A model generated the notes under the pieces. It worked only from the letters and a program-made list of their open reading frames with translations. It was not told the DNA's origin and ran no database searches. 64,000 nucleotides of DNA, from assembly GCA_000182565.2 (NCBI GenBank), contig KQ257453.1; one strand, 5' to 3'. The stretch's first letter is position 1; every line of letters begins with the position of its first letter. Of this stretch, positions 1-62,557 are shown piece after piece. Both the position numbers and the translations under genes were made by a program. This DNA comes from Spizellomyces punctatus DAOM BR117 (lineage: Eukaryota).

Positions 1-1150
1 TAATCTCTTTGGCTTCATCGCTCGTTTCCTAGTTTGACAAGGGTAAGAAGGTGTGCTGATGTGGGAAATGAATATACATGGCTTACTTCGCGGGCTTTGT
101 GGCTGAGATCTTTGATATATTGGAGAGCCAGAGCGAATGCTTCGTCATTCAACTGCAAGATCATCATAAATGTTAGAACCGCTGACATCAAGTTAGGGAA
201 CGTCGCCGACCTACTTGGTGTGTGTACCACAAATTCCTCAAGATCCAAACTTGTCGGACTTTTTGAAATTTCCAGTTTTCACGGTCGGTAACGTATTGTT
301 GCAAGTATTCTACTGCCGCCTGCCGTCGTTTACTCTCACCTGGTGCAGACGGTGGAGCCACAAGCAGGGATTTGGCTTTGACCGTAGCGGGTTCTGAGAC
401 ATTTGTCTCTTCCGCCGCCCCAGGCTTCTCAGTGTTAGACTCTAGTGCACCTTCTTTTGCAAGTAGCTTTTCTCGCATTGATTGGCGCTGTTTGAGTTTT
501 TGGACGGCGGTTGGTTTGGTTTTTGGTCTTGGTGTTCGCTTTTTTCTTCGCTTCTTTTTCTTTTCAGGAGCACCCGTCGACTCGTTGTCGGGAGTCGTTG
601 TCACTTTTTGGTCGGAAGCGTCAGCAGGTATATCATCTTCGTCTTCTCCAGAACGTTTTCGCTTCTTGTCCGTTACTTTCTTATCTTCACCTTGCGCTCC
701 GGTCTCGTCTTTGTTGGATATCACCTTGTTTTCATCTGTGTCCTTCTTGTCCTCCTTCTTTCGCTTTTTCTTTATTGACTCATTCGCGTCCTGTGCATCC
801 GTACCGGTGCTCTCTTCTTTTTTTACATTGGCATTATCTGCCGCCTTTCGTTTGGACTTTCGTTTCTCCTTGCTTGAGTCAACTTCCGTCTCAGTCTCTG
901 CTTGTTCCTCGACGCTCTTTTTCTTTTTGGTCATTTCCTTTTTAGGCTTGTCAGCCTGCTCAATGGTTGTGGTATCCTCATCGGCAGCTCCGTCCTTGCT
1001 CTTCTTTTTACTTTTCTTTACTTTATCGCCATTCCCGGATTTATCCCTTTTGGTTCGCTTCTCCTTCTTTTCTGTGTCAGCGCCATCCTCAGCTTCGCAT
1101 GTGGCAGCCTTTCGTTTGGACTTGCGAGGCTTCACTTCCTCGGACGTCAT
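1..1150 (-). CDS. Lys/Glu-rich protein with C-terminal WKF domain (C7orf50-like); 3' end runs off the window
   Basis: ATG at 1150; long K/E low-complexity region, then AVEYLQQY..ENWKFQKVRQVWIL; GT-AG introns 214-153 and 86-29 join LNDEAFALALQYIKDL in frame. Confidence 0.75.
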
Positions 1151-1330
1151 GATTCCGCACCACAAAAAACCAAGTGCGACGAAGGCGAGCTACAAGCCAA
1201 AAAGAAGTCACCAATCGCAGAGGCTTAGCAATATACCCCAATATGGTTAAATTACGGGAGTGAGCGAAGTCTAACGCAAAGTCCGCTCAGCACGACATTT
1301 GTTGGTTTTGAGACATGTACACGAATAAAC

Positions 1331-2745
1331 ATGTCAGCGCTTGGCGAGGAGGATAATACCGTAAAGACATTGTCGCTGTCGTTTGGTGGCCAATATGGGC
1401 TGCCGGTAGCTAAGAGTCTTGAGCAAAGATTGGCTGAAGAGAATCCCTCGTTGCCGTCCTTTATGGTCCGACCGTCTGCACATGCTTCCCTTTCAGCTCC
1501 ACGTAATAACACCTCCCTACCATCCACAACAATGTCATCTGCAACTGTACCAACGAGGTCATGCGTACGCTTTGTGGACACTTCCCACCGGGATTTCTTT
1601 GCGTCAAAAGAATATCAAGCACACTGCGACTTTGACACTCCAAATCAAGCTGAAGGAGCGCGGTGGAGTACATTAGGGGAGTTGGCGCACCAATTAAGCT
1701 TTGCCCTCGATCTGCTCGAATTTGAGGGCGGCCGAGGGTTTGAGGCAGAGATCTTGCGAGTTGCTGTGGATGACATTATTGATGCGACGCTAGAGGATCC
1801 CGAGGTGGATGTTGATTTGGAAGTCAAGGTGCAGGCATTGCTGGACCGGACAAGGACGCTCATTGATTGTGCTATGGTAGTAAATAAGAGTACTTGCTTG
1901 ATGTGCGCATTTCCCTTGAAAACGATATGTTCCTATCCGCACAGGAGCATGGGACTTTGAACACTGCCAAAAAGCTCATGGACATTTACGGCATGGACTG
2001 GGCAACAGCACGCAAGTTGATAGAAAGTGGGATTCAGGTAGCTTTTTCATTAATGGCGGTACTTTATCATTCTCATGCTGATCTTTTTCCCTGAAAGGTC
2101 CGAGCCCTTTTGAATTCGTCTGATCCAATTGGCATGTTGCCCGAAAACTATCTTGACCCATTCCAAAATTTTGGTTTAAAGCATTTTAATCGCACGAAAC
2201 GGATGCAAGCAATCAGTCGTCAAGGTACTTTGAAAAATTCTGCTACCGATCGTCTGTCTGCCTACTAGTAGATCACTCATCCGAGAACAAGATTGCATGT
2301 CTATTCTCGAAAAGCTTCAGGCTACCCTTGCAACGTCATACCCGGAGCTGAAGATCAATCCTTGCGGCTCTTTTGCGAGAGGGTTACCAATGCTCTCCGT
2401 TATGAACATTGTCGTACCCTTGGACGTTTCTGATGCATCCATAACCGCTGAGCGGATGATGAAATTGTTTGTTGCGGATGATCTCGTTGAGGGTATGTAC
2501 CAGAGGTTTCATTGGTCACCCGGTCATTTTGCGCACAGTGTCAACAATATGGCATCCAGGTGCTTCTGTCGAGCCACTGTCAGAGAACCAATATCTTGCT
2601 CTTGTGCCGCTGCGAAATCGAGCTGTCATGTGAGGAACCTGATAACCTAGTATCTGGATGGTACCTGACTCGCTCAATCTTTATTAGCTTGGATCTAAAG
2701 GTTCTACAATTTGAAAGTCAGAACGATCACGTGCAGCGAGGATAG
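1331..2745 (+). CDS. X-family DNA polymerase (Pol beta/lambda)-like protein, predicted inactive and C-terminally truncated
   Basis: 6 exons (1331-1876, 1945-2037, 2098-2224, 2292-2492, 2539-2629, 2688-2745) splice in frame; HhH-like LMDIYGMDWATARKLIESGI; FQNFGLKHF..ISRQDCMSI..PCGSFARG is collinear with Pol beta HQRIGLKYF..IPREEM..VCGSFRRG. Confidence 0.7.
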
Positions 2746-3780
2746 CTTGAACGATTTTCCAACTCGTCGCTTCCAGAGGTGTTAAAGTGCAAAATGCTGC
2801 CATCAAACATTTGTATATCTGTATTCTAGATGGCAAGTGCCAAACTTTTTAGCAGTAGCATGCACATGTGTATAGTCCACCTTGTCCTGCAAGAGCTTCC
2901 ACACTACACAAATAATTTGGCAAAACGACTAGTCATTTCCCTTGTTGAATTCCCGTCGGCCGCAAACGCACACGCACGACAAACACATCTAAACTCTTAC
3001 GCGAGTTGCAGGCGTTTAAAAGGAAGAAACCGGGAACGACAAAAGTCTTTTGAATCCATGGCTGTGGAACTAACAAGGAGACAGGAAACTAATTTTTGTA
3101 CTCCAAAGGTTCCAAGTATAACATGTACCAGGATTGGGAAATTCGTGAAAAATTGCCAGTGACGTGGACCGGATTTTTTTTTTTTTTTTTTATTTTTGTG
3201 ACGACGACGACGACGATGGCTGGAATGCCATGGCCTCCCCATCTCGTAGGATCGTTGTCGACCTGTAACGCAAGCAATTGTGTGTTGAACGCTATAGAAG
3301 AAAAAAAAACAATTGCCAGTCGTTAAAGCCGTGGTTTGACCAATTGTTGTAACACGCGGCATCCTTTGAAGCGTCACTTGTCGTCCGTGTGCACCGGACA
3401 CTATTTACTGTGCTGATCATTGAACAGCATCCAAAGTGCACTTGACATGTTATCCATACCATGCGCTTTCTGGAATGGGCACAGTTGATACTTGGCTGGC
3501 CAAAACTAAATGTGCCAACTGGACAGCAAAAGTTCAAATGCTACAAGATATTTACTCTATCAAGAAAAAAAAAAACAAAATTGCTGCCATGCAAAAGTCT
3601 TTCAAAAAGACAAGGATATCCGTGCAAAAACAAAATCATACAGCAATTGTCTGATCATTTCTCTAAACGAGACAACATTCCTCTATTCCCTCTCTTCAGG
3701 CCCGCCAATCACATACTCCTCTTGCAGGATAATAGCGCCCACTAGGTCCCGGCGGATGGTGCGGTGCCGGTGGATACCCA

Positions 3781-5727
3781 TCATACGAAGGTTTCAGGCG
3801 TTTGGGTTGCGGGTAGTCGGGTAAAGGTCGTTGATAGGTTGGAGACGAAAACTGGTATGGCTGTTGTATGGCGGGCGGGTACCGAGTGGATGGCTGTGCC
3901 TGGATGCTGTATGTTGATGTCGGTGTGTAGGGCGCATACGTTGGGTAGTTGGATGGGCGGGGCGGAGGTTGAGGGCGGGGTTGAAAGTGATGCGTGGGTG
4001 GAAGGGTGCGTGGATCGGGTTTGCGGTGCCGCTAAAAATGGGATGTGTGAGTCAAGAACAAGGATGGGACCTCTACGTTTTTTATGCATTACCCATTCTG
4101 CGGATTCATCATGGTACGGGGGGCCTTGATATGGGCTAGGATACGGCTTCTGTTGCTCGGGCGGTGGTGGTGGTTGGCGATAGTATGCAGGTTGCGAGAC
4201 CCGCACCAAATTGGGAGGATGCATATGGCCGTTTAGTACATGCTTCTATGTGCAGGACGTTCTTGATTAAAAAAGGATCCATGTAAACCGCAACTGTGAA
4301 CTCGTCCACAAACCTTTTTAACTGCCTCCTTTTCAAGTATCATGTAAGAAATCAGCACATTGGGAGCTTGTCGTCGCAGATGCATGTCACCTTTCTACAC
4401 ACAACGGCATTAGAAAACCAGGGAAAAGATGCACAACATCCACGGACAAACTATGCCAACTTACCACCCTGCTGTAAAGTGTATCGTAGCGATGCAAGGA
4501 GGCTTCGTACGCTGCCAGCCTCGTGCCCACTTGCGGACCCACTTCCCCGGTGCGGCTAACACCCGTAGGTTGGAGAGGCTTACTGGGGGCCCTTATCGGA
4601 GTTGCAGGAGTTCGGCCAGATGACCAGTGTAGGCTCTGGGAAGGCGCTGAGGTGACTGGACGCGGAGCGGATGGAGGGTATGTAGCATTGTTTCGTTGTG
4701 CATGGTGGTAAGCGTTCAAATCGTCACAATGCGTAAGGTCGATCACGTCTGGAGATTTGTACTGGCAGTTCCGTCTTTGGTCTGCTCCGGGTGAGTACTG
4801 AAAGGGCATTATTAGGATACCGAGTGACGGAGAATGGAGAGGGCGTAAAATATGACTTACATTCGACGATGGTGTGTGTATGCAGTGGGTATCGGCATTC
4901 CGATTCGGGGTCACATGGATAGGTTGTGGAGCTGGAGGTGCAGCAGCCGGGGGTGTAAGCAGTGGAGGGCCCAGCCCTACAGGCATGATTGTGAGCGTTG
5001 CGTACAGAGATATATACAAATTGTAGACGTGGCAATGTTACCTGTAGAAATTGGATGAGGTGTGCGACCGTCGACGATGGGACGGGTGCTCTGGGGATAA
5101 AAGGGTGTTTCCCTGTCGTGTAGATGAAAGGGACGATTTTCGAAATACCGATGACTACCATTGGAGATCCGATGATTGGGAGGTTTCGTTGTTGTTGTTG
5201 GAAGGTGTCCTAGCGATTAGAAAAAAAAAGATATGATTTTAACATACAGAATTTCTTGCACAGTTTAATCAAGTTGAAAAGCTACCATGTAGTCCAATCT
5301 CTGCAGCATTTGCAGCACCTTCTCCAGGTGACGTTGCCATCTTGTTGGGCACTGCTACAGGCACTTCACGGGCGATAGACTCGGGCAAGTCTCGCGGTTT
5401 GCCTTCAGCCAACGATAAGAGTGACGTTGCAACAGCGGCCAACGTCTCCAGCGGTGAGCGCGGGGCATCGTCACCAACGACTTTTTGCACTGTACGGATG
5501 TTGACGGTGGGATCGGATTGGCTCAGGAGATGCTGCACAGAGGAGCGTTTCAGAGGTGTCAAATGAGCGAGTTCGTGCTCCTGTGATGCATGGAACGAGC
5601 GTTTGCGGTTGATAAGGAATGGATCCGAGTGCAGAGGTAAAGGTTGGTACATTGGCCGGTTGGTGCTTGTCATGGTGTGGGCGGAGAATCGATGAAGATC
5701 CTTTGCAAGAGGATCCAATCCGTCCAT
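3781..5727 (-). CDS. Uncharacterised Pro/Ser/Thr/His-rich multi-exon protein, largely disordered
   Basis: ORF 5727-5269, an exon at about 5209-5042, ORF 5019-4387, a short exon (KGDMHLRRQAPNVLISYMILEKEAVKK) and ORF 4224-3781 join in frame through GT-AG introns; 3' end uncertain. Confidence 0.55.
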
Positions 5728-6196
5728 AAGGCGTTCGTGAATATATACTCAAGGATGGCTTTTGGGGAACAGAGGAAAAGAGTTGAGCATCGTTTTGACG
5801 AAACGAATACGTGCACACGACACACACACACACGGCAGTTTTGTACCGAAAAGCCTTTAAATTGTCACATTCAATGGAATAAGCCCTTTGGTTCCTTCCC
5901 CGGCTTGCCTCCCAGCCAGAAACATATACACGAACAAAAAAAAGAAACGACCGGAGGTTTTTCTCCCTCGTCCCAAACTCCCTTTGACCTTACGACGAAA
6001 ACATGTGTCGTTCCAACCCGGGGAAACGTACCTTTTTGGTTTGTCGGTCAAGATCTCGTTTTTGTTCCAGCTCAACAAGGGGGCGGAAGGAGCAAGGGAA
6101 GGAAAAGGGGGATACCAATTGACAGCAGGAACAAAAGAAGTTTACGCGCGCGTGAGCGGATTTCTAGGTGAAAAAAAAGGTCTCCCCCCGCCAAAC

Positions 6197-6218
6197 GCAC
6201 ACACACACACACACACAC
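6197..6218. repeat. (CA)n microsatellite in a long divergent intergenic region
   Basis: cacacacacacacacacaca; a shorter CA run lies at about 5815-5832. Confidence 0.9.
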
Positions 6219-7396
6219 AAGGGCTTTTTGAACCGTTGGACTTTTCTTCCTTAAAGCCCCCAAAGAAAACGCCGCCCCTCCGGCGAGAAGAATGTGTGTG
6301 TATTCAAACGAGATGAAAATGCGCGAGCAAATTACTCAGCGGAATGCGCAGGGATGCCCCAAACCCAACCAATAAAAAGGAAATGAACAAGGACAGTGTA
6401 AGGAAGAAAGCCGGTCTTGTTGAATGGATAATGCTTATCCCTTGAAACCAAAAACGCAAAGACCCTCGTTCGTCGTCGTCCTTCAATCCTTGTGCAAAAC
6501 AACAAACGGGCCATTCAAAATCCAAAAATCCTACTTTTTTTGAACACTTTTGCGGGGGGTCATCCCACTGTCTCCCGGGGGACAAATTTCATGATCATAT
6601 TCAGGGAAAGTGGCTTATGACATCAATACGCGATTTAAGGAGCCCCAGCGGTTCCAGAACCAGATTTGTGGGAACAATGGTCCGTTGGTTGCGCAATCCC
6701 AAACAATTGGTACAACCCGGGTTTTCGGAACTCGGCCAACTTATCGGAACGGCTAACGTAAGCAAACACAGCAACGGGGGGGTGTCGCAGGCGTGACAAA
6801 AAGTGTTGGCTTTTGTCCTTCCCCCAGGTCCGGTGCGTGTTGTTACAGAGGTGCTCGAGAGTCGAACAAGCAACAAGGCCCCATCACACGAGAAAAGGGG
6901 AAATGGGCCTGAACGCTCTGAAAGCCCGAGCAAAACGTTTACCAACCGATGAGTTTTGAACACTCGGGTGACAAACAAAGGGCTTGAATAATTGCCTCAT
7001 ACACATCTTGACCTCATCCAAAGGAACAAAAACAGTTTTATAACACAAAAGGAACAGGCACTGAATTCATCAAAATCTCTTGATATTGTAGTAGTAATCT
7101 TTCATCACCAGAAAGGGATCGTTTAACAAAGGAGGCGTTTATGGAAAGCATATGCCAATCACAGCTCCCAATGCATCCAAAATGGGTTTCAAAGTTTCTA
7201 AAAATAGTTGTTGCAAATGACCCAAAAAAAAACAGGCAACCGCAGAAACCCATATAGATATTCAAAATTGGGGACAAGAAGCAACAAGTTTTTCTTACTC
7301 TGATTTTTGGTGGCTCACATAACTACGCCCTGGAAACTTTAACCACGTTTCGAACCTATAGTTGTCGTTGTGTTTTTTTGTTAACAATCAGCATCA

Positions 7397-9160
7397 ATGG
7401 CCATGCTTTTGGCTCAACGATCCGTTGGCCTTTCGGAGGGATGGCAGCAGCAGCAGCAACAAGGTAAACTTTTGTAACGCATGACAGCACAAACCGACGT
7501 GTTTGACTAACGTTTCACCAACTGTGGTCTCTCGTAAAAGATACCGAGCAGTTGGATGTCGTCGATGACGAGGGCACAGTCGATGACAGTGAGACAGAAT
7601 CAGTATTAGCGATAAATGACGACGATGTAGATCAATTGAGTGAAGAGGAGCTCCGTCGGAAACTAAAAGAGTCCCTGGCGGTTTTACGGGAGAAGGAACG
7701 AGGTGGGTTATTTCAGGGTGTTTTTTAAACCCCCGCGAAATGGGCTTGTTACAAAAGGTAAAACAAAAACGATAACTAATCTCCTCGAATTGGGTGTTCT
7801 AGATTTGACGATTGCGGCGGAAGTGGGTCAGCATCTCCTTGAAGCCCATGCTGCGCTCCGCGAAGCCTACGATAATTACCTCAACGACACATCCCGTAAA
7901 TCGGTAACTCGCCCCCCAACACTCAGCCGATCCAACTCGACACCTTCAGCCCTCAATTCCCGTGTACCATCCTTTGACGTCCTTACACCAGATACCAAGC
8001 GTCAAAAAATCAATGATTTTGTCAAATCGTGCGAAAACCTGTTTGCGTCCTCGGAGGTGTTGTTTGCGTCGCAGAAACTCAAGCCGCGACGAAAAAGACA
8101 AAATGACTGGGGCCCGTCACTGGATTACCTTGCTGGGTCGTCCTCCTTGGCGAAATCTATGGAGCTTCTTTCCGGGTTAAAGAATAACCTTCGGAAAGAC
8201 TCTTCATTGCGCTCGGTGGGGAGCCAAGGCAATGGATCAGGCGCAGACTTGTCCGGCTATGTTTCAACCCTCGAAAAACAAGCCCAAGAGTATCAAGCGC
8301 AGATTGCAAACTTGACGGCTGAAATTAAAGATTTGACCATTGCACGGACCAAAGAAGCCGAACGGTATGCCCTTCATATGGATGAAACTCGTGCGGAACT
8401 TGGAAAGGCCAACGACAAGGTTGAATCACTCTTGTTGACGAATCGCGATCTTCGTCGACAAATTCGAGACAATAGCAAAGAGCACACATCATTGGAGTTA
8501 CAAGACCAAGCGCTCATTGATACCCTTACCAAGAAGCTTCGCGAAACTGAAGAAGCATATCAAAAACTCTTGCAAGAAAAGCAAAACGCCGATAATAATC
8601 TCGACCAAATCGTCTCTGAAGCTCGACGCCTACAAACCCTCGTCAATCAACTTGAACGACAAGTTGGAGATCAAGCAGACATTAAAACCGTATGCGAACA
8701 TCAACAAACCCTCATCAACGAGCTCCAAGAGCAACTGGAGGAAGTCCGAGGAACCTATACTGTAGAACGGGCTGAATGGGAAGGAAGAACCCAACCCCGC
8801 GGCATTGGATCCGAACCACAAAACCAAGTTCCCGAACAAAAGAGCCTTCACGACATTCTTCGTTCTGTCCCTAAACCCCTCCCAACCATGACAACCGAAC
8901 CAACCGCTCCATCCACCCCATCCGCTCGTCGGGTCTCGGCCACAGCGGCGGCAGTCGGTGTCCTCATGCGATCAGAACCCAATCCACAACGCATTGTGCA
9001 TCGTCCATCCCTAGCAGATGTTGCACAACCAAATAGTTCGGCTTTGTTGTTTAATTTAATGTGGGGATACGTTCGAGGGGTTATGGGGCGGAGAGGAGAA
9101 GAGGAAGAGGCGGTCTGGAATGCTGTTGTGGGCGGCAGTGGAGTGTTTGGGTGCATCTAA
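7397..9160 (+). CDS. Coiled-coil protein with HAP1/TRAK-like N-terminal motif (CC1 box)
   Basis: Exons about 7397-7463, 7541-7702 and 7803-9160 give LREKERDLTIAAEVGQHLLE, followed by long heptad-rich segments. Confidence 0.7.
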
Positions 9161-10540
9161 AAAATGGCTTCTACATGTGTGTGTGTGTGTATTCATATCA
9201 TTCTTTTTTTGAATATTTTATTTTTTTTGGTTTTTTGTTTACCCAGATACATGCATATAATGACAATAGTTGCATCAAAAGGGATAGCGCAACTATTTCA
9301 TTTTATCCTCATCATTTTGCGATAAGTTCCGCCATTGCTCCATATCTGCCATTTGCTCCATATCGATGATTCAGTGAACAATAGTTGAAAGACAAAACCC
9401 CGCTCCATAACGCGCGAAAGGGCAAACGCATTGTCCAAGGCATGTTCCAAGGGTGGACATTTTTGGGGGTTCGTTTTTCGTTTCCTTGGGTCCAACTATT
9501 TGCATTTTCGATGGGTTTCTTTTTTGGCGGGGTAGGCTTTTTGTTATTACTCCTTTAATCCTATTTAGAGAACTGATTGCTTAATCATTCCCGCTCGAGT
9601 TACCCGTTTGTGAGTTGTTTTTTGGGTCTGATGCCAAATGTTTCCCCATTATAAAACTTGTTTTGTTTTTTATTTTATCGCTGGAATTTGGTGCGTTTTG
9701 TCATCGTCTCCTTCTACCATTTGATCTTGGAGGCCCCTGCCCAAGAGGGCTGAGAAGCGGGTGTTCGATCGGTAAGTATGTCTTTTTGCAAGTACCAAAG
9801 CGTTACCATGTAAAACATGCTGGATATACAATTACACGGGCAGATGGATAGAAAAAAAGCAGGTACGGAAAGTGTCATTGTCGATCACATTCCGCCAAAG
9901 ACACACCCGCCCGGAAGTGGTTCCTAGCTTCCCGCTACAGTGCCTGACACTAGCTACCCGCCCGTACCGCCCGCCAAAGGTACTGGTAGAACATGTGTAT
10001 GAAGCCTAGTTCCCTGATGGATTCCTCACTACAAGAGACACTTGAGATACTGCGGGGAAGCATGCCCCCAAGATCAAGTCTCTATCGCTATGACTGATAC
10101 AAGTTTTGGGACGGTTTGATCTGTTTGCGGTGAGCGTAGATTTTATGCCAAATGCATGGTATAAGCATGGTAAGGAGGGCCGTTTGTTAATATCACAAGC
10201 AATAATAATTACACGGCACCATGGTACTCGTGTAGCATAAAACTAGGTTATGCCACCTTCCTGGTTTGTTTTTTCCGTTGATATCCATGGTTCAGATAGA
10301 TTTTGGCACAAATGACATGGCCGTGGTGATGGTTAACGCCAAATAACCATAATGACAAGAAAAAAGTGTGCACATCGAAAGTAAAGCCAGCGGACAAACC
10401 GTGCGTTCGATTGCATGCCCAAAGGTCGACTTAAGCCAATGACCAGGTTCAACATGGCAACCGCGCCTAGTTACCGTTAAGGATGCTCACTTGACGAGTT
10501 CGCCCTTTGGTAGATTGCGCACAAACACTTTCCTCATGGG

Positions 10541-11423
10541 ATGCCGCTCCCAGGAACGCATCTCGCCCTCGTGGGCACAATATCACTTACCCTTCCCTCC
10601 CTCATATCCATCTACCACACCAACCTTGGCCTCTCATCCCCTCTAATACCGTTCAGCCGAATATACGACACGTTGCATTTCACCTACCAACCCCGCCCAA
10701 AATTCAAGCTCTTGTCACGAAAAGAATCGATAGTGGGGCACTTGTTTCACCATGTTGATATTGCGTGAGTGTGTTGAATGATTTTTTTTGTAATAGTCTC
10801 TTTCTAATACGCTTATGAAAAGTCACTGGTTTGGAAATACCTACGCGATACTTTCCTCTGGATACTTTCTCGACCTTGGGCTTATCAAAACCCTCGTACT
10901 GATCATTGGGGGCGGCGTGACGGGGGCGGTGACGCATATATTGGAATGGACTATCAAGACAGGACCGATACCTATCCCTCTCGTACAATCAGAGCCAGAG
11001 CCTACATCGCTCTTGTCTGATATTGTGACGGATGCTCAAAACCTATTTACGTCTATTTTTACGACGACGGCCCCAGCTCCATTACGTACTCCTGAGCGGC
11101 TCCTTCCGCCGTCCACCTACTCGCTTTGTGGTGCAAGTGCCGCAGCGTATGCGCTAACAGGAGCTGAGATTGCGGCGATATTATGGGCAGTCAAAGAAGC
11201 ATGGGGACGGAAAGGGAGGTCACGGATAGGCGACCGAGATCGAGTCAGGAAACTAATTGTGGTTGCGCTTGGGAGACTGGTGGCCGTTGTTGCGCAAGTC
11301 GTGGCAAGCATGGAGCCTGGACGACGGGATGGACCGCTTATTATTGGTCATGGTGCACATTTGGGTGGATTTCTGTTTGGATTCATTGTAATGGGATTTT
11401 GGCAGGCCAGGCGATGGATTTGA
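10541..11423 (+). CDS. Rhomboid-family intramembrane serine protease
   Basis: Intron about 10765-10822 joins HLFHHVDIA to HWFGN (HxxxN motif); catalytic GAS in LCGASAA; catalytic His in GHGAHLGGFLFG. Confidence 0.85.
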
Positions 11424-11582
11424 AGGGACATTACATAGAGATGAGAAAGTTAGCATTTGGATAAGAAGCGACTCAACCTTACTTTGAGCTTGAACCATTG
11501 GACTAGCAGCATAGCGAGTCTAAAGTCACGGGGATTCCAAAGTCGCGGGTATGGATCACGGGATCCGCGTATGTAATCAATG

Positions 11583-11642
11583 TGACGTCAGAGTCATCGA
11601 CCGCGTCATTCTGAGATGATTCGACTGCGACAGGATATAAAA
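11583..11642 (+). promoter_or_regulatory. CRE (TGACGTCA) and TATA box upstream of the small hydrophilic protein gene
   Basis: TGACGTCA at 11583-11590; TATAAAA at about 11636-11642; ATG at 11685. Confidence 0.45.
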
Positions 11643-11684
11643 TGGGCTTTCGTTTGAGCCATTTCCTTTCAAAAACCTAAAGAC

Positions 11685-12065
11685 ATGCTTTCAGGAGCCA
11701 GACCATTGAGATCCTTGCTACGCACACCAACACATCCATTCCGAGCAGTTCGCACCATGTCATCCGCCAACGCATCTGGAGGCAAACAAGCCAGCGGAAA
11801 GCCTCAAGGTGTCTCACACAATGTAGGAGGCAACACGGACATCAATGCCGAATCGGGTGGAACGAAATCTGTCAAGGGTTCTGACCCGGCAGCTAAACAA
11901 GCGCATACCACCACGACTTCTGAAAAGCATTGGGGGACGACGCAAAAGTATCAGACAGAGGAAGAAGCGTACTCTGATCAGTATGGCAGAGCTGGAGGCA
12001 AGGGAGGGCAGAATGACAAGAACAACAAGGAAGAGCCAGACCCGACAAAACTTGTTGATGCTTGA
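11685..12065 (+). CDS. Small hydrophilic protein with probable mitochondrial presequence
   Basis: Intronless 126 aa; Arg/Leu-rich acid-free N-terminus (MLSGARPLRSLLRTPTHPFRAVRTMSS), then G/K/T/E-rich body. Confidence 0.65.
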   Translation: MLSGARPLRSLLRTPTHPFRAVRTMSSANASGGKQASGKPQGVSHNVGGNTDINAESGGTKSVKGSDPAAKQAHTTTTSEKHWGTTQKYQTEEEAYSDQYGRAGGKGGQNDKNNKEEPDPTKLVDA

Positions 12066-12826: not shown

Positions 12827-14511
12827 ATGGACGTTCATCAGTTTACCTACCTTTTTGTCCTTGGTCTGATTTTGGCCTTTTTGGATGCCTTTGGCATTGG
12901 TAGGTGTTCTCTGCATCTTTTGTTCTAGCTTTACAAGACGCTTATTTGTTTTTCTCTTTGTTAGGTGCTAACGATGTTGCCAACTCGTTTGCTACCTCTG
13001 TCGGTTCCCGGTCCATTAGTTTGAAGCAGGCATGCATCATCGCCATCTTCACCGAGTTTGGAGGTGCTGTTCTCATGGGTGCCTCCACCACCGACACCAT
13101 CAAGAACGGTATCATTGACCTAAAGAACTTTAAGGGCAACCCAGAATTGCTCATGCTCGGTTTCGTTTGCGCTTTGGCCGGATCTGCTACCTGGGTCTTG
13201 CTTGCGTCCCGAATGGGATGGCCCGTGTCAACAACTCACTCTATTGTCGGTGCCATTTGCGGTGTCGGTATCGCTGGTTTTGGTGGAGACGCTGTTCTTT
13301 GGGGTTGGGACGGTATGGGCAAGATTATCGCCTCGTGGTTCATTTCCCCTGTCGTGGCCGGGGTTGTGGCTTCCATCATCTTCCTGATCACAAAGTATGG
13401 TGTCATGCGAAGCCCCAACTCGCTGAACCGCGGTCTGAACGCCATCCCCATCTACTTTGGTATCACCATTACAATTTCCGCGCTCTACGTCGTCCTCAAG
13501 GGTGGAAAGGCTGTCAAGATCAACTCTGACAATGTTGGCGTGGTCCTTGGTGCTACCTTTGGTGCTGGTGCCGTTGTCGCCTTGTTTTGCTTCTTCTTTA
13601 TCCGCGTCTGGCTTAAACGCAAGCTTGTCAACGAGGAGAAGCTCGCTTGGTACCAAGTCTTTTACATTCCTTTTGTTGGCCCTCAGCCTCGCGACGAGCA
13701 CATTGCCGACCGCCTCACCAGGACCTTTGGTGACCACTCTGTCCCTGCCAAGAGCGACGTGGAAAATGGTCAAGTTGGCGTTGCAAAGGGAGAGGAGGTT
13801 GCGATTGTCGAACACGACCCTACTGTCACCGCTCACCCGTCTCTTGTAAACCTCGACAAGGAGACCTCCGCCACCGGAAAGGCCTGGAACAAAATCAAGG
13901 GTGCTCTTACCAAGGGTGTTAACATGGACGTTGCCTCTGTGCAATCCAGCCACGTCAAGGAGGTGCACTCCCACGCTGTAAAGTACGACTCAAAGACAGA
14001 GTACCTCTACTCCTTCCTTCAAGTCATTACCGCATCCTTTGCCTCCTTCGCCCACGGTTCCAACGATGTTGCCAACGCTGTCGGTCCTCTTGCTGCCATT
14101 TACCACATCTGGAGCACCGCTCAGCTTCCCGGAAAGAAGTCTGACGTGCCCATTTGGATTCTCGCCTATGGTGGTGTCGCCATTGATATTGGTTTGACCT
14201 TGTACGGTTACAATGTCATGAAGAACTTGGGTAACAACATCACCTACCACTCTCCCTCCCGCGGTTTCTCCATGGAACTTGGTGCCGCCTTGACCGTCAT
14301 CACTGCCAGTTTCATTGGTCTCCCCGTCTCCACAACTCACTGCATTACTGGAGCCACCGCCATGGTTGGTCTCTGCTCTGGATCATGGCGGGCATTGAAC
14401 TGGAAGGTCCTTGCCTGGTGCCTTTTCTCTTGGATCTTGACCGTTCCCGTAGCCGGGCTCATTGGTGGATTGTTGTTCGCCATCATTGCCAACGCACCCA
14501 AATTTTTGTAA
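12827..14511 (+). CDS. PHO89: PiT-family Na+/phosphate symporter (Pho89/PHO-4-like)
   Basis: Exon 1 12827-12899 (MDVHQFTYLF..AFGI), intron 12900-12964; signature motifs GANDVANSF and HGSNDVANA, PVSTTH twice; strong codon bias. Confidence 0.93.
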
Positions 14512-37409: not shown

Positions 37410-40400
37410 ATGACTGAACTAGCTGGCACTCGTGGCAGTCTTGCCAACTTGTACCGCTCCAATCCCACCCTATTTCACGATCCAGGACTTGATCCAAAGA
37501 AGCGGGCCGCGGCTGCGAACGCTATTGAGAAGAAGCGGGCGGGTTTAGATGCTCGACACCGCTATCTGTTGGAGAAGTTCGCGACTTTCATAGATGAAAA
37601 GCCTGCAACGCTAGAGAACTCTTTGCTGCAAGGCAGCAAACTTGACTATGTAAATGACTTCTTTGCAGAAGGAGGTTCCAGAAGAGTTTTGTTCTTCTGG
37701 CAGCCAGCTGGAAAGGTACGATGATGGCATAGAATCGCTAAGATTATGCAAATTTTGATGGTCAAATGCTACTTTTGGATTTTAGGATGAAGCTCCTAAA
37801 CATATGGCCGGGTTTAGCAACACTCGTACCAATACACTCATCGTTACCAATGGCAATCGCGAAGTACTCACCGGCACCGGGTGCTTCTTCATTCGTTCCA
37901 CCTCAAAGGCCATTACACCAGCCAACCTCTACCAAGAAGTTTCCTTTGGGTTGATAACACCCAATCTTCTCCCTTCACTTACGACGACTGTCAAACATGT
38001 TGTTCTTCCCGCCCTCAAAGCGCAAGAAAATTGGGGTGTCTTGACCCGACAGAAAGATGAGAGCGTTAAAGGTTTTATGGAGGTGTTGGAGAAGTTTGTG
38101 ACTGATTTAGATGTCGCAATGGTGAATTTATGCGACAGTGTGCAGTTGCATGAATGCACAGTTGATCTGGAGGCATTCAAGAAGCCCAGCGAGTATGCAA
38201 ATGCGGCACATACTCCTGAGGTTGTTAACGCGCTTGAAGGTGTGTCACAGAATTTTTCAAGCCCGATGACTGTTTATTGAGCGCTCATTGACTATCCTTT
38301 TTAGCTCTCGTGGCGGAATGGTGTAAACAAATTGAACAGGTGCTCGCCGAAAGCGAGCAAATGCGCAAAGAAGCGGATGACATCGGTCCCAACGCTGAAC
38401 TTGCACACTGGAAAGCTCGCATGGTGAAGTTCAACTCGATCACTGACCAACTCAAGTCGACGACATGCAAGAAGGTGATTGGAATTCTACATGCTGTCAA
38501 AAGCCGAGCGCTCCTGAAAACTTGGAAGGATTTGGATAACCGAGTTACGGACGCTGCCAATGAGTCCAAGGTACCTTTTTCAAACAGCGTTAATTCCTTC
38601 CAAACAATATTTACATGTTTGAACTATTAGGACAACGTCAAGTACCTGTACACCCTCGAACGGTTCTGTGAACCGCTCTACCGCAGCGATCCTGTCGGCA
38701 TGGTCCCCGCCATCCCTGGCCTCATTAACGCAATTAAGATGATCTATAGCATTTCGCGCTACTACAATACTTCTGAGAGGATGACGTCCCTTTTTGTCAA
38801 GATAACGAATCAGATGATTACCAGTTGCAAGGAATATATATACAAGGACGGAGGAAGCAAGCTTTGGGATCAGGATAGGGTTGCGTTGGTGGAAAAGTTG
38901 ACGGATTGCGTGAGACTCAATGAGGCGTATCAGAGAGTTTTCCATGAAGTTAAGCGAAAGCTAGCCGAACTGCCTCAAGAAAAGCAGTTCGACTTCTCCG
39001 AAATGTACATTTTCGGCAAGTTCGACGCCTTCTGCAAGAGGATTCAAAAAGTAGTTGACATGTTCTCCATTATTGAGAAATTTTCGCTTCTCGAGCGCCT
39101 CGGTATTGAGGGTATGGATGGGCTCATCAAGAGGTTTTCGAACATCATGATGCAGATGCAAAGGAAGCCGTATGATATTCTGGATCATAGGAAGATGGTG
39201 AATATTAAGTCTCTTAACAGTCTCAGACCAAGGTCTCATATTTTCTTCCATCACGTAGGAATATGATTCAGACTACAATACATTCAAAAAGCAGATTTCC
39301 GATCTCGAAGCCAACTTGCAGCAATTCATTGACGCAAGCTTCGAGCACATCACCAACACTGAACAAGCTCTCAACCTGCTCTCCAAGTTCAGTCAGATCA
39401 AAGACATGCAGCTGGATCTCGAATCGAAATACCATCAAGTATTTGTTCACTATACACGTCGGGATCTTGAAGGTGTCCGCAAACTTTACACCCGATACAA
39501 GGAAGCACCGCCCATCCCCCGCAACACGCCTCCTGTATCTGGTGCAATCGAATGGGCGAGACAACTGTATCGACGTATCGAAAATCCGATGAAACATTTC
39601 AAGAGTAACACGTCCGTTCTTGACTCTATGGAAGCCAAAAAGCACATCAGAAACTACAACAAGCTCGCGAGGGCATTGATTGAATTCGAGTTGTTGTGGT
39701 ACAGGTCTTGGTATGGCGTGGTGGATGAGGCCAAAACGGGTTTACAGGCCACTTTGCTAGTAGCCGACCCTGAGGGAAACCTTTATGTCAACTTCGATCC
39801 TCAAATCCTTCAATTGATTAAGGAGACCAAGCACATGCAGAGGTTGGGCTTGGAACTGCCCGAGAGTGTCAGGAACGTTTGCTTGAAGGAGATGTACTAC
39901 AAAAATCTACAGAGTGGATTGTCATCTATTCTCCAGACAAAGCAGCGCGTGCTGCTCAAGGTGACAAACGTACTCCGCCGAGCGATGGTGCCCCATATCG
40001 AAGAGTTGGATCGAACACTTCAGCCGGGATTGACTGCTTACACATGGACCTCTCTTAACCTCGATGAATACCTACAGCGTAACAACACGCAACTTGCAAA
40101 GCTTGAGGAACTCGTGGACAAGCTGCTCGACATCATTGAGGTCCGCATTGATCACGGCGTTCGTAGAATCGCCGAGTTATCTCTCTGTGAAGTACCCTCC
40201 GAGACGGAGCAATGGACAGTAGATACGTTCTTGGAGCGAATGGACGACAGATGCACCACTGTTGTGAGTGCTATCAACAATCGCTCCAACCTGATTGAAA
40301 GTGCAACACGGGACATCATTGCAGAGTTGTCCAAAGGTGTAACGACGCCCATGAGCCCGGACTTGAAACTGGCACACGAAGCAGTCTACTACCACTTCAA

Positions 40401-43400
40401 CTACCAGAACTTTGAGGCGTTGGTTCAGTGTACTAAGGGGTCTCTGGATCTACTTCGTGCTCGCCTAGGAAATTACACTGGGAACCAGTACAATCGGGCG
40501 CCGAGCCAGAAACCCTTTTTCCGTGCAGAGCTCGTGTTGAACATCCCGAACGTTGTCTTGCAGCCCAAATTGGAGGATATTCAAGCTGCTATTAATCGCG
40601 CCGCAGGCATGATCGTTGAAGTATCCAAGAAACTCAATCTCAATTGGAAGACTTTCCTCTCTTCATCGGATGCCGAGCACACGACACCACGGTCACCCGA
40701 AGACACGGCCCAGGTCGCAAACAACAAAGACGTTTTCAAAGCAATGGCCACTCTGAGTTCCACCGTAAACTCTATGCGTAAGGAAGTTGAGAATCACCGT
40801 GAGCAGTCCAGCAAATACGACTTCCTGTGGAAGGACGACAAGACGGAAACAATCCAAGCTTTCTTAAACTCCAACCCAACGATCGCCGATTTCGAATGTG
40901 AGATCAACAGATATGAAGCAATCGAAAGGGAGATCAATGACATTCCGACCACAACTCAGATTGGGTTACTGCTTGTCTCCTCTGAGCCCCTCAAACTAGC
41001 GCTATTAGCTGAAACCAAGGAGTGGAAGCAACAGTACGGTCTGAATCTCAACGGAAAGGTCAAGACGGATATGGAGCAGCTTATGGAATATATGGAAAAC
41101 AAAACCGTAAAGCTGAGTCGCAAAATCTCCGATATTGACGACCTGCGCATGGCCGTCCAGACGCTTTCCGAGATCCGTGAAGCCGAAGTTGATATTGACA
41201 TGCGCGTTGCTCCCATTGAAGAAGCGTATCTCCTTTTGACAAAGCACTCTGTGGCCGTAAGCAAAGAGGAAACGGAGATGGTCGACTCGCTTCGTTACAG
41301 TTGGAAAAAGCTAAAGCAGCTTGTAATTGACGTGCAAACGCATCTGTCAAAGATCCAACCTGTGTTCAAGGCGGATCTCATCAGTTCCGTGCAAAAGTTT
41401 TCCCAGGACGTTAAGGACTTCACTGTAGAGTACACCGAAAACGGACCTATGGTTGGCAGCATTCCACCAAAGACCGCGACCGAGAGATTAAATGTATTCC
41501 AACGTTCGTTTGACGAGTTGAACAGAAAATGGGAGACCTACTCAGCCGGTGAAGAGCTATTCTCCTTGCCTGTTACTCCCTTCCCCACCCTCGTTCGCAT
41601 CAAAAAGGAGCTGCGACTGCTTCAAAACCTTTATGGGTTGTATAACGACGTATTGGAGAAACGGCAGCAATACAACGAAACACTTTGGAGCGATCTCAAT
41701 CTGGACCAGATTAACAACGATATGAACGACTTCCAGAACAAGATCAAAAAGCTGCCCAAGGCGCTAAAAGAGTGGGATGCTTTCTTGGAGCTGAAGAAGA
41801 TTGTGGACAATCTGACGGCTATTGTACCTCTTCTTGAGATGATGAGCAACAAGGCCATGCAGCCACGCCACTGGGACAGAATCCAACAGCTCACCAACTC
41901 TACATTCAACCTTGACCCAGAAATGTTTTACCTCAAAAACCTTCTTGATGCGCCTTTGAATGAGAATCGGGACGATATTGAAGACATATGCACGGCAGCA
42001 GTCAAGGAAGCTGACATCGAGATCAAATTGAAGCAGGTCGTGACCGAATGGGAGGATAAGAGCTTTATTCTTGCCGCTTTTAAAAATAGGGGTAACCTTA
42101 TTTTGAAACCGTCCTCAACTTCTGAAATCATCTCTCAAATGGAGGATGGTTTGATGACCCTCGCATCACTGATGAGTAACCGTTACAATGCGCCCTTTAA
42201 GCCCGTCATCCAGACCTGGGTTCACAATCTATCGACAGCATCTGAAGTCATTGAGAACTGGTTGGCGGTACAGAACCTGTGGATTTACTTGGAAGCGGTT
42301 TTCGTAGGAGGTGACATTGCCAAACAGATGCCAAAGGAAGCAAAGCGGTTTAGCAACATCGATAAGAGCTGGGTGAAGATTATGAGTCTGGCCAATGAGC
42401 ATCCAAATGTCATCCAATGTTGTGTACTGGACGAGACGATTGCAAACCTGCTTCCGCATCTAACGGAACAGCTCGAGCTGTGTCAAAAGTCTCTTTCCGG
42501 CTATCTGGAGTCCAAGCGTGCTATTTTCCCTCGTTTCTATTTCGTGTCCGACCCGGCGCTTCTTGAGATTTTGGGACAGGCGAGCGACTCACATACGATT
42601 CAAGCGCACTTGAAGTCTGTTTTTGACAATGTCAACAATGTCCAGTTCCACGAGAAGGATTATGACAAAATCCTTGCCCTTGAAAGTGCCGAGGGTGAGC
42701 GTGTACCCTTGAGTCGACACATGCTTGCCGCGGGCAACGTTGAAATGTGGTTGGGCACTCTCCTAAAGTCAATGCAAACAACTATCAACGACATCATTCG
42801 TGAAGCGGCTAGCAGGATGAACGATATGCCTCTGCAAAAATTCATGGATGAGTATCCTGCTCAGGTTGGGTTGTTGTGTCTCCAGATTCAATGGACGCAG
42901 ATGTGCGAGGAAGCACTGCAAGCGTCAAAGACGGACAAAAAGAAGATGGCTGCAACAAATCAGCGAATTACTGAGATTTTGAACACCCTGATTGAAGTGA
43001 CCACCAGAGATTTAACTAAGATGGATCGAACAAAGTATGAGACTCTCATCACAATCCAAGTGCATCACCGGGATGTGTTTGAGAAGCTTTATAAAGCGCA
43101 CGTCAAGAGTCCAGATGACTTTGAGTGGCTCAAGCAGGCTCGATTCTACTGGCAAGAGACAAAGGACTGTTGCGTTGTTTCGATCACAAACTTCGACTTT
43201 AAATACCAGTGCGAGTACCTTGGGTGCACGGATCGTTTGGTCATTACCCCTCTCACCGATCGTTGTTACATTACGCTCGCCCAAGCGATTGGTATGTCAT
43301 TAGGAGGCTCACCAGCCGGTCCTGCCGGAACGGGTAAAACGGAATCCGTCAAGGATCTTGGAAAGAATCTTGGAAAATGGGTTGTCGTATTCAACTGTTC

Positions 43401-46400
43401 AGATCAAATGGATTACCGTGGTTTAGGTCGTATCTTCAAGGGATTGGCGCAAAGTGGATGTTGGGGCTGTTTCGACGAGTTCAACCGTATCGAACTACCG
43501 GTATTGTCCGTCGCTGCCCAGCAGATTGGTTGTGTGTTCTCCGCAAGGAAGGAAAGGAAGAGCTCCTTCATTTTCACAGACGGTGATACAGTTGAACTTA
43601 ACCCCGAAGTAGGTATGTTCATCACCATGAACCCCGGTTATGCAGGACGTGTCGAGCTTCCCGAGAATTTGAAGGTCCACTTCCGTTACGTAGCGATGAT
43701 GGTTCCTGATCGCCAGATCATCATGAGGGTGAAGTTGGCCGGATGTGGTTTCCTGAACAACATCATCCTGGCAAAGAAGTTCTTTGTCCTCTACCGTCTT
43801 TGCGAGGAGCAGCTTTCCAAGCAAGTGCACTATGATTTTGGTCTTCGTAACATTTTGTCAGTATTGCGTACTTGCGGTGCAGCGAAGCGTGGAAATCCTG
43901 AAGATTCAGAGAATCTGATTATCATGCGTGTTCTTCGTGACATGAACTTGTCCAAGCTCGTAGACGAGGATGAGGCGCTTTTCTTGAGTTTGGTGAATGA
44001 TTTGTTCCCCGGCTTGACTGCAAAGAAGAGTACATATCCAAGTATGGAGGCGGCTATCGACCAGCAGCTCCAGGATGCCAATCTCATCAATCACCCCCCG
44101 TGGACGCTGAAGGTCATTCAGTTGTACGAAACTGCAAAAGTCCGTCACGGTATTATGGTCCTCGGACCCACAGGTACGGGTAAGACGAAATGTATCAACG
44201 CATTGCTGAAAGCTATGACGGCTTGCGGCGATCCACACAAGGAATTGAGAATGAACCCGAAAGCCATTACCGATTATCAAATGTTTGGACGGTTGGATGT
44301 TGCAACCAATGACTGGACAGACGGTATTTTCTCATCTTTGTGGAGAAAAACGCTAAAGAAAAAAGGTGAAACTATTTGGATCGTATTGGACGGTCCTGTC
44401 GACGCAGTGTGGATTGAGAATTTGAACAGTGTTCTGGACGATAACAAGTGCTTGACACTGGCAAACGGTGATCGTATTCCCATGTCAGCCGCTTGTAAGC
44501 TCACATTTGAGGTCCACAGTTTGAGAAACGCATCTCCGGCTACGGTATCTCGTTGTGGTATGATCTACATCGGTGTGACGGCACTCTCATGGGACATTGT
44601 CCTTCAGTCGTGGTTCAAATCCCGGGCAGCATCCGAGGTAGCCGTCCTTGAACCTCTGTTCAACGCCAGCTTTGGTGCTTGCAGCAACTACATGAACTTG
44701 GAGCTGCACCCCAAGATGATCATTGCGCGTGTGCAATATGTTGTTAATTGCACGACGTTGTTGAATGGATTGATCCCCAAGGCCGAGGCAAACAAGTCAC
44801 AAATTGCCGCTGATCACTTGGAGAGGCTGTATGTATTCTGTTTGTTCTGGGCATTGGGGGCTCTTTTGGAACTTGATGAGCGGAAGAAGCTTCAGACGTT
44901 CATGCTGGAGAAATGTCCGGACCTCAAGTACCCACCACTTGATCAGAATAGCCAAGACACATTCTACGAGTACTTTGTCGATGAGTCTGGTCAATGGAGT
45001 CATTGGCGTGAGCGTGTACCGGGATGGCAGTACCCTCAAGACAGCACTCCAGAGTTCTCTAGCATCATCATTCCTACTGTGGACAATGTTCGAACAGAGT
45101 TTTTGATCGACACAGTTTCCAAGCAGTCCAAATCGGTCCTACTTATTGGTGAGCCTGGAACGGCCAAAACGGTCACCGTCAGAAAATACCTCGCGAAGCT
45201 CAATCCCGACACTCATTTGTCGAAGAACTTGAGTTTCTCATCCGCAACCACTCCCATGATCTTCCAGCGAACTATTGAAAGCTATCTCGACAAGCGCATG
45301 GGTTCTACCTACGGTCCACCTGCCGGAAAGAAGATGATCTTATTTATTGACGACATCAACATGCCCGAGATCAACGAGTGGGGTGATCAGGTAACTGGAG
45401 AAATTGTCCGACAGTTGATGGAGTACCAAGGCTTCTATTCTCTGGACCGACCTGGTGATTGGACAGGCATTGTTGATTTGCAGTTCTTGGGGGCTATGAT
45501 GCACCCCGGAGGTGGTCGTAACGATATTCCGAGTCGTCTAAAGCGACAGTTCTTGGTCATCAACTGTACGATTCCATCTGACGTCTCTGTTGACAAGATC
45601 TTTGGCACGATGTTGGAGGGACATTTCTCAGCCGCTCGCAAATTCCCAGAAGAAGTTATCGCAATGGCTGCTCGTCTACCAGCACTTACTCGGCGATTGT
45701 GGCAATCGACAAAAGCAAAAATGCTTCCCACACCTGCTAAATTCCACTACATTTTCAACTTGCGGGACCTGTCCCGTATTGTGGAGGGCATGCTTAACAC
45801 TAAATCTGAAGTTATCAACAGCACCAAAATGCTGCTTCATTTGTGGGAGCATGAATGTTCTCGTGTGATCCCGGATCGGTTTGTCACATCTGAGGATATC
45901 GACTGGTTCAGCAAGACTCTGGTTAACCTTGTCCAGAAAGAGGTTGGTGACGATGCTGCAGCCGCAGTCGCTCAAAAGAGCTACTTTGTAGACTTCTTGC
46001 GGGAACCCCCAGAAATCGATGACCCGGACGTTGAAATTGACTTGGATGCCCTCAAGGTTTACGAAAAGATTCCTTCGTTCGAGGCTCTTCGTGACCGATT
46101 GCAGGACTATATGAAGCAATACAATGAAAACATCCGTGGATCTAAAATGGATCTGGTACTTTTTGAGGACGCTATGAAGCACATTGTTAGGATCTCACGT
46201 ATCATTCGCACTCCTCGTGGAAACGCTCTGCTGGTTGGTGTCGGAGGTTCCGGCAAACAGTCCTTGACCAAGTTGGCTGCATTTATTGCGAAAAGTCAGG
46301 TCTTCCAGATCTCCATCTCAAAGAATTACAGCGTTCAAAACCTGATGGAAGACTTCAAATTTATGTACAAACTTGCCGGAGCACAAGGGAAATCCGTAAC

Positions 46401-61599: not shown

Positions 61600-62360
61600 C
61601 TAATTGTCGGACGTGACCCACTCTGCATTCGCAACTAAGGAAATTCATGAATTAGTACGGAAATCACCCACCACAAAATCAAAGCATCTTTACATACACT
61701 CCCAGTTGAACACCTCCGACTTGCCAAACCACAATGCAATCTCCTTCTCCGCACTCTCAAATGAGTCTGATCCATGGATTATGTTGCGTCCCACACTGAT
61801 GCAATAGTCTCCTCGGATGGTGCCTGGCTGGGCCTCAAGGGGGTTGGTTGCGCCAATGATGCGGCGACCTTGGCGAATTACATCCTTGCCTTCCCACACC
61901 ATGGCAATCTATATTCACTTCACGCGTTAGAATGCACGTCTGAAGACAGCATGAACGCACACAAGGAATACATACAACAGGAGCAGATCCAGACGTCATG
62001 TACGAAACCAAGCCCGCAAAAAACGGACGCCCCTTCAGATCCGCATAATGCTCCTCTGCCAGCGCCTTGGATGGTACAATCGCCTTGATGCCAACCAACT
62101 TGTACCCTTTCCTCTCAAACCTCTCAATGACATTCGCCACCAGTCCCCGCTGCGTCCCATCGGGCTTGATGGCTATAAATGTGCGCTCGATCCCGCCTTT
62201 TTGTGCCGGCAGGGAAGGGGGCCTCGAGGTGGAGAGGGGAGGTAAGGAGCCCAAGGGTGGCCGCGCTACCCGTGGCGATGGCGACAATGCGGGGCCGTGC
62301 CAGGCGGGGAAGCTGCTGGAAGGCTCTGCGGGCCAGGTGGGGAAGCATACGGGCAAACAT
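61600..62360 (-). CDS. NDK1: Nucleoside diphosphate kinase with N-terminal mitochondrial targeting extension (apparent frameshift)
   Basis: [28 protein letters not shown], catalytic RNIIHGSDS; two clear introns; ends WVTSDN*. Confidence 0.92.
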
Positions 62361-62557
62361 GATGCGTTTGTTCTCCAATGAAATCCTTTTAATAAAAAAA
62401 AGATGAAAGATGGAAATGTCTCCAAAACCCGCGAACGAGGCCCTTTTATATCCCGCTGATGGTTCCAACCAACCCACGCGCTCCTTCGCCCTCCCAAAGT
62501 CGCCGCGATCTCTCCTCGGCATCCAACCATAGACGACAAGATTTAGACAATCAAAAG

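Follow-up and report, generated by a model that had tools for sequence, protein, structure and literature searches.

The locus at positions 1331-2745 (plus strand) of the window, by which we mean the whole stretch of 64,000 nt of Spizellomyces punctatus DNA that was analyzed, raises the question of what a gene does that resembles a DNA polymerase with exchanged catalytic residues. A first-pass annotation, made from the letters alone, had described it as an intact gene for a catalytically dead, thumb-less X-family polymerase (PolX). The genome containing the window is eukaryotic and comprises 24.1 Mb. Elsewhere in the window there is a 3583-aa unbroken frame that presumably encodes an axonemal dynein heavy chain-like protein (39406-51023, plus strand), and we take 13075-14511 (plus strand) to be a phosphate-transporter-like frame and about 61835-62530 (minus strand) to be a nucleoside-diphosphate-kinase-like exon.

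As the annotation had it, six exons separated by five GT..AG introns (58-68 nt) splice in frame, giving 364 codons with no internal stop. The spliced product is identical to the database protein P0001, i.e. SPPG_02918 of S. punctatus (364 aa). The features are as follows, with residue numbers of Pol beta taken from alignments with Pol beta.

1151-1330, no strand: 180-nt spacer towards a head-to-head minus-strand gene for a WKF-domain protein
1331-1876, plus: exon 1, aa 1-182, a tail followed by an 8-kDa-like helical bundle
1877-1944, plus: intron 1, 68 nt, GT..AG, no RNA junction seen
1945-2037, plus: exon 2, aa 183-213, second HhH with G-M-D in place of G-I-G (PF10391, E 0.071)
2038-2097, plus: intron 2, between exons 2 and 3
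2098-2224, plus: exon 3, aa 214-255, fingers, with GLKHF resembling GLKYF of Pol beta
2225-2291, plus: intron 3, between exons 3 and 4
2292-2492, plus: exon 4, aa 256-323, palm, 24.7 bits with the oomycete profile, spanned by contigs X1 and X3
2366-2407, plus: altered catalytic motif GSFARG-LPML-SVMN, with G189 replaced by S, D190 by V and D192 by N, and R183 kept
2493-2559, plus: intron 4, 67 nt, the sole junction with RNA support (run X1, one contig)
2560-2629, plus: exon 5, aa 323-346, shortened palm hairpin in common with the oomycete family
2630-2687, plus: predicted intron 5, 58 nt, GTGAGG..TAG, retention of which leads to a stop at 2631-2633
2688-2745, plus: exon 6, aa 346-364, LDLKV strand with D348 and K350 (the R258 position), then the stop codon

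The tail of the protein (aa 1-84, within exon 1) has pLDDT values below 50 and is probably disordered, as judged from the model; it carries the short motif TLSLSFG. Residues ~85-182 form the 8-kDa-like bundle, which is strongly acidic and has a degenerate first HhH hairpin. The stretch LSLSFG (aa 14-19) also occurs in the oomycete-type protein P0003 (aa 10-15), upstream of the usual start of the family and possibly by chance, and in P0005.

In raw RNA from run X8 (about 6% sampled, 133 reads placed on the window) the plus-strand depth was 0 between 1243 and 1647, did not exceed 1.2 between 1648 and 2700 (0 over 2053-2376) and was 6-12 over 2701-2943; at the start of the neighboring minus-strand gene the depth was 38. 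Run X1, RNA by our guess, yielded one contig (depth 3.4) from which intron 4 is precisely removed and in which predicted intron 5 is retained as far as position 2673, while runs X2 and X3 behave as DNA. RNA support was thus obtained for one of the five introns, and the junction check proposed with the annotation succeeded for intron 4 but not for intron 5. When retained, intron 5 stops the frame where the annotation of the orthologue also ends; on the other hand, exon 6 is backed by homology, with LDLKV continuing the family alignment. SPPG_02918 is weakly transcribed and at least partly spliced.

The plus-strand read peak at 2701-2943, with loose ends at 2789, may represent the 3' UTR of SPPG_02918 or a separate transcript; a 110-aa frame at 2830-3162 is absent from the protein collection and is not thumb-like. 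The X1 contig differs from the assembly at 2430 (S302F) and 2593 (Y334C), both differences changing residues in a single low-depth contig, and the cysteine of Y334C is also the residue of the orthologue. The WKF-domain gene itself (188-1150, minus strand) encodes a lysine-rich protein (PF10180, E 2.8e-11). RNA read ends pile up over 1145-1152 at its predicted ATG, as if its 5' UTR were almost nil or its start lay further in.

The relationship to PolX was not apparent from sequence searches with P0001 alone: the Pfam palm match was below significance (E 0.065-0.26), and a search of PDB sequences returned 11 matches, all to Pol beta and each weak (E 0.06-0.09). A structure model from the single sequence was uninformative (pLDDT 43.5). 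A second model depends on its 39-row alignment (36 oomycete-type rows, the orthologue and one canonical PolX); its mean pLDDT is 66.6, with 86-97 in the palm (~251-350) and 60-67 in the HhH1 region. With this model Foldseek ranked Pol beta and Pol lambda first (E 2.4e-8), and the best VIA-align match was Pol beta (Z 15.2, 200 residues, rmsd 7.1). Residues 116-360 superpose on Pol beta 10-266, from the 8-kDa domain through the palm, so the collinearity with Pol beta that had been proposed holds. PolX clusters were also retrieved with the Atlas's own P0001 model (TM 0.46-0.57), the family profile matched Pol beta with E 1e-12, and a viral fold library gave nothing beyond ordinary PolX-level matches. 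Of the suggested checks, the HMM search accordingly failed with Pfam, and it is the structure comparison that settles the PolX fold; on its modeled fold, P0001 is an X-family DNA polymerase by descent.

What this PolX lacks can be read from the motif GSFARGLPMLSVMN at 2366-2407. V291 (2399-2401) and N294 (2405-2407; V-M-N) occupy the positions of D190 and D192 in Pol beta, S290 that of G189, and R183 is kept. The third Asp is retained as D348 (2692-2694) at the D256 position, and the stop codon follows at 2743-2745, with YFTG, helix N and thumb missing. In these respects the annotation was accurate: both metal-binding Asp are replaced, the third remains, and the frame ends soon after it. Compared with an active PolX, P0001 therefore has V291, N294 and D348 in place of three catalytic Asp; it is without the YFTG steric gate, helix N (N279, R283) and thumb; and it is without the two HhH GhG hairpins and the basic 8-kDa domain, the HhH1 mapping falling in the region of pLDDT 60-67. 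No alternative letter was found at the motif codons in runs X1 and X3, which argues against an assembly error or editing, although X3 may be the assembly's own source.

The missing parts were searched for in the surroundings. Against 607 six-frame pieces of window positions 1-12000 the thumb profile reached 3.3 bits at best, in a search where one control exon of a paralogue scored 14.9 bits and the remaining control exons only 2-6. None of 175 alternative donor-acceptor pairs produced a YFTG-like motif, and no GDxD-like motif was found in the three plus-strand frames of 1151-8000. Among 86 hypothetical splices a single one restored DxD; it would require a 768-nt intron with a GC donor and would lead into a homopolymer/microsatellite, and contig X1 continues unspliced there. 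A splice form restoring DxD or the thumb, named beforehand as an outcome that would overturn the annotation, was thus not found in plausible form in either set. A hidden thumb exon was likewise rejected: searching the genome with a single oomycete protein turned up one weak match, which contains 6 stops, in an insensitive search that also missed the P0001 gene. Rfam had no match in window positions 1-8000. Loss of a triad Asp removes polymerase activity, according to the available portion of PMC9226535, and with its triad Asp lost SPPG_02918 is expected, from established chemistry, to carry out no two-metal nucleotidyl transfer.

Two intact PolX genes, one beta-like on contig C19 and one lambda-like on C12, are present elsewhere in the genome; both keep GDxD, the third Asp and the thumb, so that polymerase work is covered without SPPG_02918. 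PF14791 matched in the genome on C19 only. The steric gates of the two paralogues (C19 2969-4614, L010; C12 2893-4520, L011) are unusual, HSTG and HYTG in place of YFTG; in the beta-like paralogue the lyase-lysine position is occupied by Leu, with Lys one residue earlier. A third, weak match to the PolX-fingers profile (C9:516888-516989, minus strand, 19.6 bits; L012) lies below the cut-off. Ku matches were found on C1 and C10, and the XRCC1 N-terminal domain had no match in the genome despite the Pol beta-like gene, in an exon-wise search that may miss it.

The closest relatives of the gene came from searching 1.84 billion representatives with a profile built from P0001 and P0002, its orthologue. 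This profile returned 7 matches: P0002 itself, the oomycete-type proteins P0003, P0004 and P0006, the N-terminal match P0005, and two canonical lambdas, which were outranked by the oomycete-type proteins and P0005. The altered motif is shared by P0003, P0004 and P0006, one of which is labeled Bremia lactucae. A family search seeded with these matches then found 37 proteins among 8000 scored candidates, 26 of them named, all as oomycetes (Phytophthora, Peronospora, Hyaloperonospora, Plasmopara, Peronosclerospora, Nothophytophthora, Pythium, Globisporangium and Lagenidium), and 11 without a name. No Saprolegniales or Albugo name occurred among the 37, but since the search also missed P0001 and P0002, its edge is not that of the family. 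Many of the entries are automatically labeled 'DNA polymerase', which they probably are not.

These 37 matches plus the Bremia protein make up a set of 38 rows, two of them fragments gapped at the motif. The D190 position holds V in 34 rows, T in 2 and a gap in 2, hence Asp in none of the 36 covering rows; the D192 position holds D in 35, N in 1 and a gap in 2; and D256 is present in 36 rows (36/37 covering). The G189 position is S and the R258 position K in 36 of 38, and R183 as well as T273/G274 are kept in 36/36 covering rows. YFTG is essentially intact and the thumb kept, whereas N279 and R283 never are. The features that define this SVxD type, namely S-[VT]-x-D replacing G-D-x-D, a short palm hairpin, xLDLK and membership of one clade, were also found in SPPG_02918, which deviates at the last motif position with N, as does one oomycete-type row. 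P0002 has V and D at the catalytic positions. Judged from the alignments, loss of the first Asp is a family trait, so catalysis was lost long ago. On the same comparison, Asn at the D192 position is recent, because Asp is found in the orthologue and in 35/36 covering oomycete rows, and like the loss of the thumb it belongs to later, chytrid-side changes. The dead and thumb-less state seen at first pass is accordingly family-wide in its first step only. Further chytrid-type members were found neither by a word-based search nor in metagenomes, viral contigs or prokaryotic genomes, in scans that are insensitive to intron-rich genes.

The N-terminal half of the oomycete proteins carries conserved HPxRKRKFF and C-x-PCW-x-C-x-H stretches ahead of the 8-kDa helices, without a Pfam match. 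The NLS-like basic motif is found in 32/38 rows and the Cys/His cluster in 34/38, neither being evident in P0001; they are possibly an NLS and a zinc site.

We consider that there is about an even chance that SPPG_02918 is a genuine gene of low expression, that it encodes a polymerase-dead representative of an old eukaryotic PolX subfamily found in Spizellomyces and in peronosporalean/pythialean oomycetes, and that its product serves as a protein-binding nuclear adaptor. On this view, the TLSLSFG motif of the tail and the acidic helices that once made up the lyase domain would dock on a nuclear partner of basic character, most likely one that takes part in recombination or in the repair of DNA breaks; the palm would remain as a folded platform, and DNA would not be gripped directly. 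Docking by these two parts is proposed because they have been conserved between distantly related members of the chytrid line: over 197 columns P0005 is 33% identical to the chytrid N-terminus (E 2e-16), with tail motif and acidic helices kept, and it appears to share intron 1, since its called frame ends just past the matching residues. The adaptor role, the partner, the pathway and the nuclear location are what we infer. A flagellar role was dropped, the family being kept in Hyaloperonospora, Peronospora and Bremia, which are non-flagellate.

How firmly selection maintains the gene was judged within Spizellomyces. P0002 stems from S. sp. 'palustris', is 85% identical and is syntenic, on the same contig as the orthologues of the neighbors. 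Three syntenic neighbors are 97, 95 and 96% identical to their orthologues (18 frames were looked up, 4 were in the protein collection and one of these had no orthologue in its 90% cluster), so that SPPG_02918 evolves 3-5 times faster. This rate is what one would expect if the subfamily were functional in oomycetes and the Spizellomyces copy, inherited or transferred, were a slowly decaying remnant transcribed via the bidirectional promoter of its neighbor, a reading which we regard as unlikely and still the most serious of the alternatives. It would account for what this copy has lost step by step in addition to the losses of the family (thumb, second Asp and possibly exon 6), for the sparse reads of the gene itself with a well-expressed head-to-head gene 180 nt away, and for the fact that both X1 differences change amino acids. 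On the other hand, the amino-acid changes between the orthologues (52 among 344 aligned residues) are of a more conservative kind than those in a neutral simulation (3000 runs, P 0.005), in which 88-91% of the runs reached a stop. An intact frame would still have a 10% chance at 7.5% neutral DNA divergence, but only 0.3-5% at 10-20%, where the expected identity is 66-81%. The confident palm model and the N-terminal motifs kept in the distant P0005 also speak against decay, while the difference in substitution between core and tail (13% vs 22%, p 0.08) is not significant. Weak or relaxed purifying selection in Spizellomyces fits these comparisons best. The first-pass argument that the gene is not decaying, as stops and frameshifts are absent, is therefore right about the frame and weaker as proof than was stated; that it is PolX-derived, polymerase-dead, thumb-less and not simple debris is upheld by the fold, the intact syntenic orthologue, the conservative substitutions and the dead oomycete family.

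The annotation had also suggested a scaffold that binds DNA gaps or ends, and for this copy that part is doubtful and found no support. Direct binding via the 8-kDa domain along with the HhH, possibly with dRP-lyase activity, could be expected from the presence of 8-kDa domain, HhH/fingers and palm, from the kept R183 and the mildly basic HhH2-fingers region (+3), and from Lys166, which in both Spizellomyces proteins aligns with the lyase-lysine position (we take K72 of Pol beta as this position, and the HhH1 numbering likewise). The pocket around Lys166, however, is acidic. Both hairpins of P0001 have lost the second glycine and carry Glu/Asp instead, the net charge of the 8-kDa region is -13 (-11 in the other Spizellomyces protein), compared with +2 to +10 in 11 canonical PolXs and -10 to +4 in the oomycete rows, and the core pI is 4.7 as opposed to 7.8-9.7, the pI values of the two Spizellomyces proteins being 4.7-4.9. 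In all 38 oomycete rows I/V/L takes the place of the lyase lysine and K/R that of the second HhH2 glycine, and the second HhH1 glycine survives in 1/38; in the chytrid copy the thumb, too, is absent. Direct binding of this kind is therefore improbable, and it is because of the Glu/Asp in the hairpins, the charge of -13 and the pI of 4.7 that an adaptor is favored over a gap scaffold.

No better placed is a remodeled active site, by which the full-length members would bind a nucleotide or one metal, as a sensor or for a different chemistry, via R183, D192, D256 and YFTG, the chytrid copy having partly lost this ability. The strictness with which R183, D192, D256 and T273/G274 are conserved in the oomycete rows is unusual for a dead site, and 302 triad variants are listed for prokaryotic dead PolXs in the available portion of PMC9226535. 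Yet D192 and K258 may form a structural salt bridge, going by the role of R258 given in the accessible text of PMC12362244, no row has kept N279 or R283, and Asn at D192 is tolerated in one oomycete row as well as in the chytrid copy. We consider this reading a long shot.

An oomycete-only profile, cut before the thumb, scored P0001 at 56.5 and P0002 at 43.7 bits, as against 4-26 bits for 11 canonical PolXs and at most 2.7 bits for shuffles (200 shuffles, 161 scored); a canonical-only profile gave 34.5 and 41.4 bits. When 27 rows were placed in a tree (14 oomycete-type rows out of the 38, 2 chytrid and 11 canonical, 7 of the latter viral; 188 columns, four motif columns dropped), chytrid and oomycete forms grouped together with support of 100/99 and a long stem; the tool warned that long branches meet. 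Origin from the genome's own beta or lambda gene was rejected (p-AU 8e-7 and 3e-4). That the two groups are independent dead duplicates joined by long-branch attraction would agree with their identity of 18-25%, the long stems, the small outgroup and the beta-like look of the chytrid fingers, but is very improbable in view of the profile-profile match (98.3%, E 1.8e-14), the AU tests, the traits in common outside the dropped columns (IYGM hairpin, ISxQD, short palm hairpin, xLDLKV) and the lack, by eye, of any intron position common to SPPG_02918 and its own paralogue models. Each alone, the chytrid and the oomycete group attach beside the same canonical row, P0007, the nearest in the trees, which has RIDLK. 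This hints at a stramenopile origin and transfer of the subfamily, with an outgroup too thin for the direction.

What is new is that SPPG_02918 is no broken local duplicate, its closest relatives being a conserved dead family of oomycetes. The fold of this family has persisted without a PHP nuclease in the downy mildews, Phytophthora and Pythium-like species that were sampled, which implies a non-catalytic job. We therefore put forward, tentatively and with slightly less than even confidence, that eukaryotes have a fifth, dead type of PolX: a nuclear adaptor in all sampled peronosporalean/pythialean oomycetes and in chytrids, either ancient and widely lost or transferred between stramenopiles and zoosporic fungi, that would regulate break repair or recombination without DNA synthesis, with a Cys/His metal site in oomycetes and a minimal functional core in the chytrid form. 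The distribution offers a testable case of deep ancestry with repeated loss or of gene transfer, and the chytrid copy a natural deletion series of the subfamily, in an organism that is harmless.

To our knowledge, the characterized eukaryotic PolXs are active enzymes. NF45/NF90, MiD51 and Utp22 are pseudo-nucleotidyltransferases that have kept the fold without catalysis and are used as adaptors. These, together with ImuB, an inactive Y-family member mentioned in the available part of PMC9226535, resemble the present proteins in using a polymerase-type fold as adaptor without catalysis, but they belong to different families and the analogy is one of principle only. In searches of the open-access literature we came across neither a dead eukaryotic PolX nor the locus tags in question; members may be contained in the 7250-sequence set of PMC12362244 or in the survey of Bienstock 2014; chytrids and oomycetes are not mentioned in the available main text of PMC12828229.

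With Pol beta as well as Pol lambda the family shares the order of 8-kDa domain, HhH/fingers and palm, the GS-RG motif with R183, the third Asp and the best fold and profile matches. It differs from them in the family-wide loss of D190, the broken HhH and the acidic 8-kDa domain, and the chytrid copy in addition in the loss of D192 and in having no YFTG, helix N or thumb. Pol lambda and Pol mu have an N-terminal BRCT domain and a 'brooch' (as given in the available text of PMC3799444), whereas no BRCT match was obtained with P0001, with P0002 or with 25 family members; P0001, P0002 and 34/38 oomycete rows have a Cys close to where the brooch would lie, in an uncertain alignment. The Harosa (SAR) cluster of PolXs with RIDLK likewise has Lys at the R258 position and xLDLK, but its enzymes are active and keep all three Asp, and in that survey of 7250 sequences, as far as its accessible text goes, non-canonical PolXs among 12 clusters are named only for bacteria (PMC12362244). 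The non-canonical prokaryotic PolXs of Prostova et al. 2022 carry a PHP exonuclease domain, which accounts for their persistence, and have for the most part retained 8-kDa domain and thumb, according to the available part of that study (PMC9226535), whereas the oomycete-chytrid family is eukaryotic; PHP was matched neither by P0001 and P0002 nor by 25 family members, and no prokaryotic relative was found. As described there, the prokaryotic proteins are otherwise similar to the present family, with an altered triad that includes valine, a shortened palm, lost dNTP contacts and coexisting polymerases.
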